Source: Escherichia coli (GTDB lineage Bacteria > Pseudomonadota > Gammaproteobacteria > Enterobacterales > Enterobacteriaceae). From it: a stretch of 64,000 nucleotides of DNA. Position 1 is the first letter of the stretch, and every line of letters begins with the position of its first letter. Made by a program: the position numbers and the translations under genes. The notes beneath the pieces were generated by a model, which was given only the letters and a program-made list of their open reading frames with translations, was not told the DNA's origin and made no database searches. The stretch lies in NCBI RefSeq assembly GCF_024298765.1, contig NZ_CP101210.1; one strand, written 5' to 3'. This document shows, piece after piece, positions 4,908 to 43,271 of the stretch.

Positions 4908-5127
4908 AGCACCTTGCTGAAAGATAATTTCGTTACCGTACGTATTGTTCTCCGACGGTTTACATAATTACTATACTGAAGATGATTTTCCCTGGGTACA
5001 TGGCATAAAGTTTATGTTTCCAGGAATATTGCATGTCATAGTTTGTTTTTGATCGCGATTTTCCTTAGTTAGCGCAGAAAGAGTTATTTATCCGTAAGAT
5101 CTTGCATGACCTGAAAAGAATATTGCA

Positions 5128-6798: not shown

Positions 6799-6935
6799 CG
6801 TGTAATGGCTGCATGAAATAAACAATAAAATATAAATAACATTATCAGCCTGCTGACGGCTTGAAGAGAGTCACAGTATCTTGTGCAACATTATTGGAAA
6901 GCGTGAGGGGCGAGGTAGCGAAGCGGAAAAATGTT

Positions 6936-7041
6936 AAAAAAAAGCCCATCGTGGGAGATGGGCAAAGACTACACACAGCAATTCGTTGTTTCACTCAGGG
7001 GATTTCCATGCTTATAAATCAATATGTTGATTTATAACCGT
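6936..7041 (-). ncRNA. rprA: RprA small regulatory RNA (Hfq-dependent activator of rpoS translation), including its intrinsic terminator
   Basis: Reverse complement reads ACGGTTATAAATCAACATATTGATTTATAAGCATGGAAATCCCCTGAGTGAAACAACGAATTGCTGTGTGTAGTCTTTGCCCATCTCCCACGATGGGCTTTTTTT, recognised as rprA; lies between ydiK and ydiL as in K-12. Confidence 0.85.
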
Positions 7042-12479: not shown

Positions 12480-12685
12480 TCCTGACTTAATGCCGCAATT
12501 TTGCCAAATCGACCTGGATTAACCTCCGTCCAGGTTCGATGACCTTCTTAATACTGCTTATCTATCCGCCTGATATTGTTCAAAAATAATACTAATCGCA
12601 GTTTGTGTTAAAACGGCGGGTTAGCTTTATGAGATTATTCTTATCGCCCCTTCAAGAGCTAAGCCACTGAGAGTGCCGGAGATAA

Positions 12686-12750
12686 GCGCCGGATGGGGTA
12701 GAAACCCTTAAGCCTGTGTCGCACAGACTTAAGGGTTTTCTTATTTCTGA
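12686..12750 (+). ncRNA. rydB: Candidate sRNA (position expected for rydB) ending at an intrinsic terminator; boundaries approximate
   Basis: Strong hairpin AAACCCTTAAGCCTGTGTCGCACAGACTTAAGGGTTTT followed by TCTTATTTCT on the + strand, between ydiH and the suf promoter where rydB is mapped in K-12; strand and 5' end not verified. Confidence 0.35.
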
Positions 12751-12967
12751 ACGCTGCACTTTTTTACCTATCTCTTAAATAGTCATTTTCAATACAACTT
12801 TTTCTTTTTCATCACAGCCTTAATGCTCCTTAGATAATAATCATTATCTAACAATGAGATACCTAATTCTTAGCGTGCCTGTTAACCCACACATCAGGGT
12901 CTATGCTTATTAAAAGCAGGAAAAAAGCATGTTTTACGGTAAAGCCCCTGCGTTTGCTGGGTTGAAC

Positions 12968-12983
12968 TGATAATCATTATCAC
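12968..12983. promoter_or_regulatory. Fur box overlapping the sufA promoter -35/-10 region
   Basis: TGATAATCATTATCAC matches the Fur consensus GATAATGATAATCATTATC; about 45 bp upstream of the sufA start; the suf operon is known to be Fur-repressed. Confidence 0.6.
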
Positions 12984-13027
12984 TAACATGCTGTTTTACG
13001 CTGAAAGCGATGAAGTGAGGTAAATCG

Positions 13028-13396
13028 ATGGACATGCATTCAGGAACCTTTAATCCACAGGATTTCGCCTGGCAGGGCTTAACGCTGACACCCGCAGCCG
13101 CTGTCCACATCCGCGAGCTGGTGGCAAAGCAGCCGGGTATGGTCGGCGTGCGCTTAGGCGTGAAGCAAACGGGCTGCGCGGGCTTTGGCTATGTGCTCGA
13201 CAGTGTTAGCGAGCCGGACAAAGACGATCTGCTGTTTGAACACGACGGCGCGAAGCTGTTTGTCCCGCTGCAAGCGATGCCGTTTATTGATGGCACGGAA
13301 GTCGATTTCGTTCGTGAAGGACTTAATCAGATATTCAAATTTCACAACCCTAAAGCCCAGAATGAATGTGGCTGTGGCGAAAGCTTTGGGGTATAG
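13028..13396 (+). CDS. sufA: Fe-S cluster A-type carrier protein SufA
   Basis: 122-aa ORF recognised as SufA, complete with its own stop codon. Confidence 0.95.
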
Positions 13397-13404
13397 GCGG
13401 TACT

Positions 13405-14640
13405 ATGTCTCGTAATACTGAAGCAACTGACGATGTCAAAACCTGGACCGGCGGCCCGCTGAATTATAAAGAAGGATTCTTCACCCAGTTAGCCACCGAT
13501 GAGCTGGCAAAGGGGATAAACGAAGAGGTGGTGCGCGCAATTTCGGCGAAGCGTAATGAGCCGGAGTGGATGCTGGAGTTTCGTCTCAACGCCTATCACG
13601 CATGGCTGGAGATGGAAGAACCGCACTGGTTGAAAGCGCACTACGACAAGCTGAATTATCAGGATTACAGCTACTACTCGGCACCATCGTGCGGTAATTG
13701 TGACGACAACTGCGCGTCTGAACCCGGCGCGGTGCAGCAAACTGGCGCGAACGCCTTTTTAAGTAAAGAGGTGGAGGCGGCGTTTGAGCAGTTGGGCGTT
13801 CCCGTGCGGGAAGGCAAAGAGGTGGCAGTGGATGCCATTTTCGACTCTGTTTCGGTTGCCACTACTTATCGCGAAAAACTGGCGGAGCAGGGAATTATTT
13901 TTTGTTCCTTTGGCGAGGCGATCCACGATCACCCGGAACTGGTGCGTAAATATCTCGGCACCGTGGTGCCGGAGAATGACAACTTCTTTGCCGCACTTAA
14001 TGCGGCGGTAGCCTCTGACGGTACGTTTATTTATGTGCCTAAAGGCGTGCGTTGCCCGATGGAACTTTCCACCTATTTTCGCATTAACGCGGAAAAAACC
14101 GGGCAGTTTGAGCGCACCATTCTGGTGGCCGACGAAGACAGCTATGTCAGCTACATTGAAGGCTGTTCCGCTCCGGTGCGTGACAGCTATCATAATGGCG
14201 AATACCTCATTCATGGCACCAGTGCGCCGGACAGCGTCGGTTTGCGCGTCAGTTCGGGCTGTATTCGCATGAATGCACCGGATATTAAAGCTTTATTCTC
14301 CAGCGTGCGGACGGGAACACCGGTGAAAGTGATCAACGAACCGGTGAAATATTCCGTGGAACCTAACGGGATGCGTTATGTTGAAGTACATCGACCACTA
14401 TCGGCAGAAGAACAGCAGAACGTTCAGACAATGCCGTACACGCTGCCAGCAGGCTTTACGCAATTTAAAGACAATAAGGCTGTAGATCAGAAGTTAGTCG
14501 ATAAAGCGTTGTATCGTCGGGCAGGGTATCCGGTTGCGGTGAGCAGTGGAGCAACTCCCGCAGCCAGCAATGCGCCTTCAGTAGAGTCAGCGCAGAATGG
14601 GGAACCAGAGCAAGGGAATGTGTTACGCGCGACGCAGTAG
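13405..14640 (+). CDS. Chimeric in-frame ORF (411 aa): SufB residues 1-262 fused to the C-terminal 149 residues of L,D-transpeptidase LdtE (YnhG); apparent deletion product, junction near 14190/14191
   Basis: Translation [17 protein letters not shown]...[13 protein letters not shown] is SufB, then [28 protein letters not shown]...NVLRATQ is the YkuD-type catalytic domain and tail of LdtE; lpp follows immediately as it does downstream of ldtE in K-12; no sufC, sufD, sufS or sufE anywhere in the window. Confidence 0.85.
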
Positions 14641-14655
14641 CGGTAAATAGCAGGC

Positions 14656-14686
14656 AAAAAAATGGCGCACAATGTGCGCCATTTTT
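14656..14686. terminator. Bidirectional intrinsic terminator shared by lpp and the convergent upstream ORF
   Basis: AAAAAAATGGCGCACAATGTGCGCCATTTTT: GC-rich hairpin flanked by an A-run and a T-run. Confidence 0.8.
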
Positions 14687-14702: not shown

Positions 14703-14951
<249 letters not shown>

Positions 14952-25355: not shown

Positions 25356-25661
25356 TCAGGCGAGTTTTGCCTGATTGATTTGACTAAGTGGCTCATTGAC
25401 ATCGAAAACTTTGGCGACAACTTCCTCAACGCCGAGATTTTTCAGTCGGGCAGTATGTTTTTCCAGATAGGCAAGGGCGCTTTTTTCATCAGTAAAAAGG
25501 TAGATCCCACCGGCTTCGTGGTTCTTTTCACTTTCTGTCCATACCTTCCACAGAAAACCAGGTTCCTGATTAATCGACTCAGCAAGCGGTTCAAGCTGCT
25601 CAACCATTGCGTCGCCAAATGGGCCATTAAAAGCAAAATGAAGTTGTAACAAAGTTGCCAT
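25356..25661 (-). CDS. ydhR: Putative monooxygenase-like small protein YdhR
   Basis: 101-aa ORF recognised as YdhR. Confidence 0.88.
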
Positions 25662-25768
25662 AGCGATTCTCCTTCTGATAACGCATACGAAGACAGTGTA
25701 AATCTTTTAACGTATTGGATACAGAGAAGAAACAGAGGGAAAAAGGAGAAGACCAGATTAAGAAAATC

Positions 25769-25845
25769 TGGTGCGTCCGAGTGGACTCGAACCACCGACC
25801 CCCACCATGTCAAGGTGGTGCTCTAACCAACTGAGCTACGGACGC
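25769..25845 (-). tRNA. valW: tRNA-Val (anticodon GAC)
   Basis: Reverse complement GCGTCCGTAGCTCAGTTGGTTAGAGCACCACCTTGACATGGTGGGGGTCGGTGGTTCGAGTCCACTCGGACGCACCA has the cloverleaf hallmarks (GTTCGAGTC T-loop, encoded CCA); the valV/valW assignment follows map order. Confidence 0.9.
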
Positions 25846-25849
25846 AGGA

Positions 25850-25926
25850 TGGTGCGTTCAATTGGACTCGAACCAACGACCCCCACCATGTCAAGGTGGT
25901 GCTCTAACCAACTGAGCTATGAACGC
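25850..25926 (-). tRNA. valV: tRNA-Val (anticodon GAC), tandem copy 4 nt from the first
   Basis: Reverse complement GCGTTCATAGCTCAGTTGGTTAGAGCACCACCTTGACATGGTGGGGGTCGTTGGTTCGAGTCCAATTGAACGCACCA. Confidence 0.9.
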
Positions 25927-34517: not shown

Positions 34518-34561
34518 TCCATTTCACTCCAGACCCTAACTTCAGCTCCTGCAAAATCGCA

Positions 34562-34577
34562 AGGTAAACGTTTGCCT
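34562..34577. promoter_or_regulatory. PurR-box-like palindrome upstream of purR
   Basis: AGGTAAACGTTTGCCT resembles the PurR operator consensus ACGCAAACGTTTGCGT; purR is known to be autoregulated, but the exact operator positions are not verified here. Confidence 0.45.
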
Positions 34578-34815
34578 TTACACACCTTACGCACAACAAA
34601 AGTGTTGCGGTACGCCGGAAAAACGACACGGAGCGTCAGGAAGGGGTCAATGGCCAGTACGCAAATAGTGTAAGCGTGGAATTTTGGCCGATCTTGACGA
34701 AAAGGGGAAGTGGTAAAAACACTTATCATTATAAATGACGGGAGATTTTTTCATCACAGTGTGTAAAAATGCGTAATATCACTTTTTGTGTGGTAATAAA
34801 AAAGGAGAAAACTTG

Positions 34816-34905
34816 ATGAGCACCGACCTTAAATTTTCACTGGTAACAACGATTATCGTCCTCGGTTTGATCGTGGCCGTGGGTTTGACAGCCGCGCTGC
34901 ACTGA
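34816..34905 (+). CDS. ynhF: Small hydrophobic protein YnhF (29 aa)
   Basis: ATG preceded by AAAGGAGAAAACTTG (Shine-Dalgarno); encodes MSTDLKFSLVTTIIVLGLIVAVGLTAALH; below the 60-aa cutoff of the ORF track. Confidence 0.75.
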   Translation: MSTDLKFSLVTTIIVLGLIVAVGLTAALH

Positions 34906-35070
34906 TTTCCTCTCGAGGGAGCGCGTTCTCCCTCGCATCTCCTTCCTGTTTGTTAGCAAAATGGCAAAAGTGTTTTCTCTTTTTGTTATTTTCATTTTTT
35001 TGTGATTGCTGTCATGCTTTCGCCACTTTAATGAATATCGCGTAATGACGCGAAGAGGTGGAGATAAGGC

Positions 35071-41600: not shown

Positions 41601-43271
41601 CACGCTATACATGCCACGATCCGGAATGGTGCCGCCGCTGGTAACCGCCAACAATTGAGCGCCAGGTCGGGCGGTCAATATCCCGGTCTCCCGGTTCCAG
41701 ACCAGTTTGGGGCGAAAAGCAGAAAAATCGCCAGAGGGATAGCGCCCGGAAAGCATATCCAGCGTGGCGTCAAAAACACGTCTTGGCAGATCTTTCCACG
41801 GTGCGGCACGGCGTACGCGGGAGTACCATTCGTCTACCTGTAATGCATCCATCGCCGCGGCGGCAACGGTTTGCTGCGCAAGGACGTCGAGTGGATTATG
41901 CGGCGGTGTCAGGTTTTCCAGCCTGCCTGCGAACATACACTCTACAATGACTGCGGAATCGACTAAGTCACGCCTGGTTCGGGGGAAAAAAAGCCCTTTA
42001 GATACACCGCCAACCTGATGTCCGGCGCGACCAATGCGTTGTAACCCACTGGCAACAGAAAGCGGCGTTGCCACCTGAATCACCAGATCCACCGCGCCCA
42101 TATCAATCCCCAGTTCGAGACTGGAGGTTGCGACCACACAGCGTAATTCACCCGATTTCAACGCCTGTTCGGTGATTGCTCGTTGTTCTTTAGAGACGGA
42201 GCCGTGGTGTGAGCGGGCAATAAAAATGTCGCTACTTTGTACACGGTTAGAGGTTGCGCCGGAGGTCGACTCGAAATGGGCCGCATCAACGGCGATAGAT
42301 GGGGAACGCTGTAAGCGTGCGGCGTAAAGCTCATTTAATCGTGTCGTCAGTTTTTCCGCCAGCCCGCGTGAATTAGTAAAGACAATGGTCGAGCGATGGC
42401 GCAAAACTTCATCAAGGATACCCGTTTCAATATATGGCCAGATGGAGCCTTCCCGGCCGGCATGGCTGTCTTCGCCGGTGCCGCTGGCGACCGATGAGAC
42501 ATCATCCATATTGGCGACCGGTACGACAATCCGTATCTGCGGATGGCGCATTGCGGGCGGGTTGACTACCGTAACCGGGCGATCGCCACCAAGAAATGCT
42601 GCCACATCGCTGGCTGAACGCACAGTGGCAGAAAGGCCAATTCGCTGTGCTGAGGTGTGGAGCAGCGTATCGAGCCGCTCCATACTTAACGCCAGATGCG
42701 CACCACGTTTACTGCCCGCTACCGCGTGGACTTCATCAATAATTACCGTTTCGACGCCGCGTAGCGTTTCGCGCGCGCGGGAGGTCAGCATCAGATAGAG
42801 TGATTCGGGTGTGGTGATCAGAATATCCGGCGGATTACGGGTGAGTTTGCTGCGTTCCTGTGCAGGCGTATCGCCAGTACGGATCCCCACGCGAAGATTG
42901 ACTTCCGTTTCGCCGCGCCGCCGCCGTTCATCGGCAATACCCTGTAACGGGATCTGCAAGTTGCGCTGAACGTCGGTGCCCAGAGCTTTGAACGGTGAAA
43001 TATAGAGGATGCGTGAGGTTTTACGCTTATGCGCCTCGCGGGTATCTTCGCCGCCTTCGCGGAAGAGCTGATCGAGGGCGTAGAGAAATGCTGCCAGCGT
43101 TTTCCCGGAGCCAGTCGGTGCAATCACCAGCGCATGTTCGCCTCGCGCCGCCACATGCCAGGTTTGCGACTGGACAGCGGTCGGCTGTTTAAAGGCGCGA
43201 AGAAACCAGTCGCGGGTCGCCGGTGAAAACACGTCCGGCAGGGGCGATGAAGGGTTTAGATTATCTGCCAT
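38655..43271 (-). CDS. lhr: ATP-dependent DNA helicase Lhr (superfamily 2)
   Basis: 1538-aa ORF with Walker A (APTGSGKT) and DEVH helicase motifs, recognised as Lhr. Confidence 0.95.
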   Translation of the reverse strand: MADNLNPSSPLPDVFSPATRDWFLRAFKQPTAVQSQTWHVAARGEHALVIAPTGSGKTLAAFLYALDQLFREGGEDTREAHKRKTSRILYISPFKALGTDVQRNLQIPLQGIADERRRRGETEVNLRVGIRTGDTPAQERSKLTRNPPDILITTPESLYLMLTSRARETLRGVETVIIDEVHAVAGSKRGAHLALSMERLDTLLHTSAQRIGLSATVRSASDVAAFLGGDRPVTVVNPPAMRHPQIRIVVPVANMDDVSSVASGTGEDSHAGREGSIWPYIETGILDEVLRHRSTIVFTNSRGLAEKLTTRLNELYAARLQRSPSIAVDAAHFESTSGATSNRVQSSDIFIARSHHGSVSKEQRAITEQALKSGELRCVVATSSLELGIDMGAVDLVIQVATPLSVASGLQRIGRAGHQVGGVSKGLFFPRTRRDLVDSAVIVECMFAGRLENLTPPHNPLDVLAQQTVAAAAMDALQVDEWYSRVRRAAPWKDLPRRVFDATLDMLSGRYPSGDFSAFRPKLVWNRETGILTARPGAQLLAVTSGGTIPDRGMYSVLLPEGEEQAGSRRVGELDEEMVYESRVNDIITLGATSWRIQQITRDQVIVTPAPGRSARLPFWRGEGNGRPAELGEMIGDFLHLLADGAFFSGTIPPWLAEENTIANIQGLIDEQRNATGIVPGSRHLVLERCRDEIGDWRIILHSPYGRRVHEPWALAIAGRIHALWGADASVVASDDGIVARIPDTDGKLPDAAIFLFEPEKLLQIVREAVGSSALFAARFRECAARALLMPGRTPGHRPPLWQQRLRASQLLEIAQGYPDFPVILETLRECLQDVYDLPALERLMRRLNGGEIQISDVTTTTPSPFAASLLFGYVAEFMYQSDAPLAERRASVLSLDSELLRNLLGQVDPGELLDPQVIRQVEEELQRLAPGRRAKGEEGLFDLLHELGPMTVEDLAQRHTGSSEEIASYLENLLAVKRIFPTMISGQERLACMDDAARLRDALGVRLPESLPEIYLHRVSYPLRDLFLRYLRAHALVTSEQLAHEFSLGIAIVEEQLQQLREQGLVMNLQQDIWVSDEVFRRLRLRSLQAAREATRPVAATTYARLLLERQGVLPATDGSPALFASTSPGVYEGVDGVMQVIEQLAGVGLPASLWESQILPARVRDYSPEMLDELLATGAVIWSGQKKLGEDDGLVALHLQEYAAESFTPAEANQANRSALQQAIVTVLADGGAWFAQQISQRIRDKIGESVDPSAMQEALWALVWQGVITSDIWAPLRALTRSSTNTRTSTRRSHRARRGRPVYAQPVSPLVSYNTPKLAGRWSLLQVEPLNDTERMLALAENMLDRYGIISRQAVIAENIPGGFPSMQTLCRSMEDSGRIMRGRFVEGLGGAQFAERLTIDRLRDLATQATQTRHYTPVALSANDPANAWGNLLPWPAHPATLIPTRRAGALVVVSGGKLLLYLAQGGKKMLVWQEKEELLAPEIFHALTTALRREPRLRFTLTEVNDLPVRQTPMFTLLREAGFSSSPQGLDWG

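Follow-up and report, generated by a model that had tools for sequence, protein, structure and literature searches.

In the 64,000-nucleotide stretch of Escherichia coli DNA analysed here (contig NZ_CP101210.1 of assembly GCF_024298765.1, hereafter the window), a single deletion of 5,053 bp joins the 5′ part of sufB in frame to the 3′ part of ldtE. We consider it likely that the deletion arose spontaneously in the chromosome of a single strain, to which it is private, and that the sufB′::′ldtE fusion is its inactive by-product in a strain devoid of both LdtE and Suf, the Fe-S cluster assembly system used under stress. The kind of event, a sporadic Suf-inactivating deletion, is known already. 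The allele itself is new; it is an ordinary, rare loss of function and not a new system.

A blunt 5,053-bp deletion between sufB and ldtE

The organization of the region is the following (window coordinates, strand, feature):

12480-13027, + strand: intergenic region between ydiH and sufA, containing the suf promoter/regulatory region, intact
12646-12706, + strand: rydB sRNA (Rfam, 81.6 bits)
13028-13396, + strand: sufA, complete, 122 aa and its own stop; 122/122 residues identical to strain 104 SufA (tblastn)
13405-14192, + strand: sufB remnant, codons 1-262 and the first 2 nt of codon 263
14192/14193, no strand: deletion junction, blunt
14193-14640, + strand: ldtE remnant, starting with the third base of codon 186 and followed by codons 187-334 and stop
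14665-14679, no strand: bidirectional terminator-like hairpin between ldtE and lpp, with terminator-like sites on both strands; intact, same sequence as in relatives
14703-14939, - strand: lpp, complete, 78 aa; 78/78 residues identical (tblastn)

The fusion is carried by one uninterrupted open reading frame of 411 codons plus stop (13405-14640, + strand), with its ATG at 13405 and its stop codon at 14638-14640. The start chosen, ATG 13405, is the SufB start in the RefSeq annotation of relatives. A mechanical ORF call begins at the upstream ATG 13366 and yields 424 aa, the extra segment (13366-13404) overlapping sufA; a gene caller could choose this ATG inside sufA as the start of the chimera. 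The product comprises SufB 1-262, a hybrid His at residue 263 and LdtE 187-334. According to tblastn, residues 1-262 differ from SufB by one substitution only, G190E, and residues 264-411 are all identical to LdtE 187-334. Codon 263 (CAT, His) is composed of CA from sufB and T from ldtE. A preliminary description of this DNA had proposed a 411-codon ORF made of two genes. Both the ORF list and tblastn confirmed it, and the alignment switches from sufB to ldtE instead of being colinear with one natural gene. The same description had counted 149 LdtE residues, which are in fact 148 native residues and the hybrid codon.

The breakpoints were determined by base-by-base comparison with the intact locus (L001) of E. 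coli strain 104 (NZ_CP029164.1), whose complete genome is the closest. The gene order of L001 is ydiH, sufA, sufB, sufC, sufD, sufS, sufE and ldtE, then lpp on the opposite strand. Homology on the left stops at window position 14192 (L001 10713) and resumes on the right at position 14193 (L001 15767), so that the junction falls after base 2 of sufB codon 263 and before base 3 of ldtE codon 186. The segment L001 10714-15766, 5,053 bp long, is missing from the window, and with it the 3′ part of sufB, sufC, sufD, sufS, sufE and the 5′ part of ldtE. The interval between ydiH and lpp measures 2.2 kb in the window versus 7.3 kb in the intact locus. These measurements agree with the earlier estimates of a deletion of about 5 kb and of an interval of about 2.2 kb in place of about 7 kb. 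The switch between the two genes had been placed near 14190/14191, which is roughly the right location but 2 nt away from the exact breakpoint. An alignment to an intact locus had also been proposed for fixing the breakpoints and any microhomology, and it reveals a single clean deletion.

Both neighbours of the fusion, sufA and lpp, had been described as intact and indeed are, as the identities listed above show; ydiH is intact as well, with 100% protein identity. SufC, SufD, SufS and SufE gave no tblastn match anywhere in the 64-kb window, as anticipated. The ydiH-sufA intergenic region is 100% identical to that of strain 104 over 551 columns. By its likeness to the textbook consensus, we take the sequence GATAATCATTATC at about 12969-12981 to be a putative Fur-box-like element. 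Besides rydB, Rfam matches in the window include HPnc0260 (25645-25807, + strand), the sRNA STnc550 (34518-34908, + strand) and RprA (6934-7041, - strand). The HPnc0260 match overlaps, in antisense orientation, the tandem tRNA-Val genes at 25772-25926.

Compared with L001, the junction at 14192/14193 displays 0 bp of microhomology and no inserted bases, IS element or recombineering scar. An IS-mediated or engineered deletion was rejected because no foreign bases are present at the junction. A 13-nt direct repeat, GGTGAAATATTCC, occurs at window positions 14343-14355, in the retained part of ldtE, and at about L001 10759-10771, in the deleted part of sufB. It is the only notable sequence that the two breakpoints share within 300 bp, and no in-register k-mer was found. 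The two copies are out of register, with offsets of +45 and +150, and we thus rejected a repeat-mediated deletion or a repeat collapse. Such a repeat could seed a slippage deletion; it was not used in the present one.

We propose that one illegitimate, homology-independent joining event would have removed the sequence from sufB codon 263 to ldtE codon 186. The C-terminal half of SufB, SufC, SufD, SufS, SufE, the ldtE promoter and the N-terminal 186 residues of LdtE would have been lost together, and the two reading frames would have met in phase by chance. In-frame joining is unremarkable in itself, as its chance is 1 in 3 for any deletion.

A deliberate laboratory construct, namely an engineered suf/ldtE knockout, would also give a clean junction without IS element and an in-frame fusion. 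However, no FRT, loxP, marker scar or foreign bases are found at the junction, the deletion ends mid-codon in two unrelated genes, unlike a knockout design, and the clade to which the background belongs comes from poultry, pigs and humans and is not that of a laboratory strain. We consider this origin extremely improbable.

Domain content of the chimera and predicted phenotype

The Pfam domains of the chimera are SufBD_N (156-217), SUFBD_core (225-265), YkuD (260-309) and a full Ldt_C (313-379). The SUFBD_core domain (PF01458) is incomplete: it covers model positions 1-40 of 232 (E = 3.4e-4), versus 1-232 in intact SufB, where the complete domain extends over residues 225-466. YkuD (PF03734) is also incomplete, with model positions 93-146 of 146 versus 3-146 in intact LdtE, whose domains are LysM (42-85), YkuD (97-232) and Ldt_C (236-302). 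The LdtE part had been described beforehand as the catalytic domain and tail of the enzyme. This holds for the tail, since Ldt_C is full, but only the last third of YkuD is present. Structure matches follow the same division: 5AWF (SufB) covers residues 1-263 of the chimera only, and 4LZH (L,D-transpeptidase) residues 265-379 only.

On the SufB side, residues 263-495 are gone, while Cys254 and the N-terminal CxxCxxxC motif are still present. The deleted C-terminal region presumably includes Cys405 and its neighbours, reported as cluster ligands, and the contact with SufC (SufBCD structure, 5AWF). Suf requires SufS/SufE for sulfur mobilisation in addition to the SufBC2D scaffold. Left with roughly a sixth of the SufBD core and lacking all partner proteins, the chimera should have no role as an Fe-S scaffold. 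On the LdtE side, the active-site His...Cys motif is retained, LdtE Cys209 corresponding to Cys286 of the chimera. Residues 1-186 of LdtE are deleted, including the leader peptide and LysM, and the N-terminus of the chimera, as read from the sequence, is that of cytoplasmic SufB. L,D-transpeptidases work on periplasmic peptidoglycan. The chimera, with no export signal and an L,D-transpeptidase fold reduced to its last third, should be unable to reach this substrate.

The suf promoter is under the control of Fur, OxyR and IscR. Being intact, this stress-inducible promoter should drive a still functional sufA and the 411-aa SufB′-′LdtE hybrid. The domain content, together with the analogy to the BL21(DE3) fusion considered below, suggests that the chimera is most likely an inactive by-product. 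From the domain content and the absence of sufC, sufD, sufS and sufE within the 64-kb window, we infer a Suf-null and LdtE-null genotype; a second suf copy may lie elsewhere in the genome, for example on a plasmid, beyond the window. The strain should depend on Isc alone for its Fe-S clusters. E. coli suf mutants are viable via Isc and impaired in iron starvation and oxidative stress, and LdtD is still able to make 3-3 cross-links. The phenotype predicted from K-12 genetics is thus that of a viable strain sensitive to iron starvation and oxidative stress.

Rarity of the allele and strain background

The junction was found in 0 of 5,426 complete E. coli genomes, and its exact 25-nt sequence, GTGACAGCTATCATAATGGCGAATA, has 0 matches in GTDB representative genomes and in JGI metagenome contigs. 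The exact protein, looked up in its 411-aa form only, is absent from a collection of about 15 billion proteins and from the gene-position index. The allele was not found either in the literature on sufBCDSE plus ldtE and on natural suf gene loss in E. coli. By these searches the sufB::ldtE allele is private to one strain. The deleted segment is present at a coverage of at least 80% in 5,417 of the 5,426 complete genomes, which corresponds to a loss in about 0.2% of them. In one of the 5,426 genomes nothing matches the 64-kb window at all, and each third of the window is covered to less than 80% in about 70-90 genomes, pointing to larger rearrangements of the region in a few strains.

On both flanks of the deletion, the window is near-identical to the complete E. 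coli genomes of one clade, all with an intact suf operon. This clade gathers poultry, pig and human isolates and includes strain 104, MSHS 133, CT30, EC12, EC31, FDAARGOS_1286 and APEC O78:H4 strains. The left 14.2 kb show 3 differences from MSHS 133 (a T8/T7 homopolymer at 1928 and SNPs at 4911 and 13973), and the right 49.8 kb a single difference from strain 104 (a SNP at 42992). The 5,053-bp deletion is the only structural difference from the relatives in 64 kb. The few small differences show that the window belongs to an independent genome and is no copy of a database record. At position 1928, in the ydiF-aroD spacer, the window has T8 and both strain 104 and MSHS 133 have T7, possibly owing to a sequencing error. 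The SNP at 4911, about 10 nt upstream of ydiN, also distinguishes the window from both strains; the SNP at 42992 lies within lhr and was compared with strain 104 only.

The remaining SNP, A instead of G at 13973, is responsible for the G190E substitution in the sufB remnant. A 61-nt probe matches 5,225 complete E. coli genomes, and none of these has G190E. Position 190 of SufB is variable between genera, where S, G, H or A is found. The substitution would fit a relaxed constraint on the remnant and would be weak evidence for decay; since it is one SNP at so variable a position, it was set aside as a sign of pseudogene decay.

The assembly is the one source of the junction, and a blunt junction is also expected from a mis-join or a chimeric read. 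The strain could thus have an intact sufBCDSE-ldtE locus, and the fusion would be an artefact of assembly, of consensus calling or of post-assembly handling: a mis-join or chimeric long read, the retention of a minority subpopulation as the consensus, or sequence editing. The uniqueness of the junction across every collection searched and its lack of microhomology would fit such an artefact, and the private T8 at 1928, if it is a sequencing error, would hint at an imperfect consensus. However, assemblers collapse at repeats, and the breakpoints have no in-register repeat. The remainder of the 64 kb is colinear with the relatives and nearly error-free, and loss of the segment is real in a small fraction of complete genomes. 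In addition, comparable blunt suf deletions exist in other independent assemblies, two of them being present in both NCBI and Logan. We regard an artefact, the main rival explanation, as unlikely and retain a spontaneous deletion as the likely explanation of the fusion.

Other lesions of the suf operon

In BL21(DE3) and strains derived from it, an in-frame deletion of 854 bp fuses sufA to sufB; the fusion protein accumulates and Suf is non-functional (Corless et al., bioRxiv 10.1101/811059). As in the window, a single deletion in sufABCDSE leaves the suf promoter followed by a hybrid ORF joined in frame. The two alleles are nevertheless distinct, as the preliminary description had pointed out: sufA codons are lost in BL21(DE3), whereas sufA is complete in the window and the deletion is much longer there. 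Unlike that of BL21(DE3), the deletion in the window also inactivates a second, unrelated gene, ldtE.

A sensitive protein search revealed a second, independent in-frame sufB::ldtE fusion of 409 aa (P0001), located on contig 272 of Logan ERR2932817 (L004 8001-9230). This contig was seen in 2 samples. The deletion of 5,059 bp joins SufB residues 1 to about 172 to LdtE residues from about 98 to 334. As in the window, sufB and ldtE are joined in frame, the deletion is of near-equal size, and both flanking genes, sufA and lpp, are intact. In contrast, the breakpoints are different, the whole YkuD domain is kept, and the junction has about 3-4 bp of microhomology (GAT/GATC) versus none in the window. 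With about 98% nucleotide identity to the window, the sequence belongs to a different strain background.

The same search gave four further E. coli fusions, all singletons, each resulting from one in-frame deletion that starts in sufB; deletions and microhomology were modelled on L001:

P0009: sufB(257)::sufS, 2,874-bp deletion, 6 bp of microhomology
P0024: sufB(247)::sufS, 3,582-bp deletion, 0 bp of microhomology
P0011: sufB(370)::sufS, 2,601-bp deletion, 0 bp of microhomology
P0002: sufB(413)::sufC, 348-bp deletion, 1 bp of microhomology

Given the 0-6 bp of microhomology in the other fusions, blunt junctions are normal for the suf fusion class. Two Klebsiella-like fusions of SufB with an ABC-ATPase (P0021 and P0022) did not fit the E. 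coli reference model. A breakpoint hotspot at SufB codons 247-263 was considered and rejected, as ranking by score to the present query favours those breakpoints.

Insertion sequences account for two other lesions. In the clade mate CS18F (NZ_CP074576.1, L009 3196-4308), a frameshifted IS421 (IS4-like) is inserted in sufD. In E. coli H32 (NZ_CM184319.1, L010 5288-6372), IS1A replaces the region from sufA through the start of sufE, and only a shortened sufE, ldtE and lpp are kept; an IS3-family element also splits the nearby ydhY in this strain. Like the deletion in the window, the sufB::sufS and sufB::sufC fusions and the lesions of CS18F and H32 are sporadic, strain-private inactivations of Suf. 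They differ from it in being confined to the suf operon or IS-linked, and none of them extends into ldtE.

Several sequences end at or near the codon where the SufB part of the window ends. A cluster of 262-aa SufB fragments from another genus (P0017, about 79% nucleotide identity) ends at the same codon. One contig of that genus, L005 (6787-6789), has a stop codon in place of sufB Q263 (CAG to TAG), and three more, found in other samples, run out at codon 262/263: L006, L007 (6788) and L008 (6786). The end of L006, ...AGCTATCA, falls on the same nucleotide as the left breakpoint of the window, and L007 aligns to the same end. We did not retain a breakage hotspot at codon 262/263: these ends are probably explained by polymorphic sites at which de Bruijn assembly broke the contigs, plus one nonsense allele.

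The second sufB::ldtE fusion, independent, in frame, of nearly equal deletion size and in a different E. coli background, and the existence of several further suf lesions raise the question of selection. Deletions from sufB into ldtE might recur because loss of Suf, with or without that of LdtE, or a stable cytoplasmic SufB′-′LdtE hybrid, gives an advantage in some niche; the loss or the fusion protein itself would then be adaptive. Against this, every fusion allele is a singleton among billions of proteins, and nearly all complete genomes, 5,417 of 5,426, retain the segment. Both domains of the hybrid are truncated and its export signal is gone. The in-frame pattern itself reflects an ascertainment bias, as a protein search shows only in-frame fusions as full-coverage matches. 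An adaptive origin therefore appears very unlikely. If it were true, suf would be a contingency target for loss and not a strictly conserved core operon.

In annotation, the ORF is to be flagged as a fusion pseudogene and named neither SufB nor LdtE. Nearly all E. coli have the suf operon, so that isolates lacking Suf by nature are uncommon, and the present one could serve as a natural test of the need for Suf outside the laboratory, for example under host iron starvation or oxidative stress.
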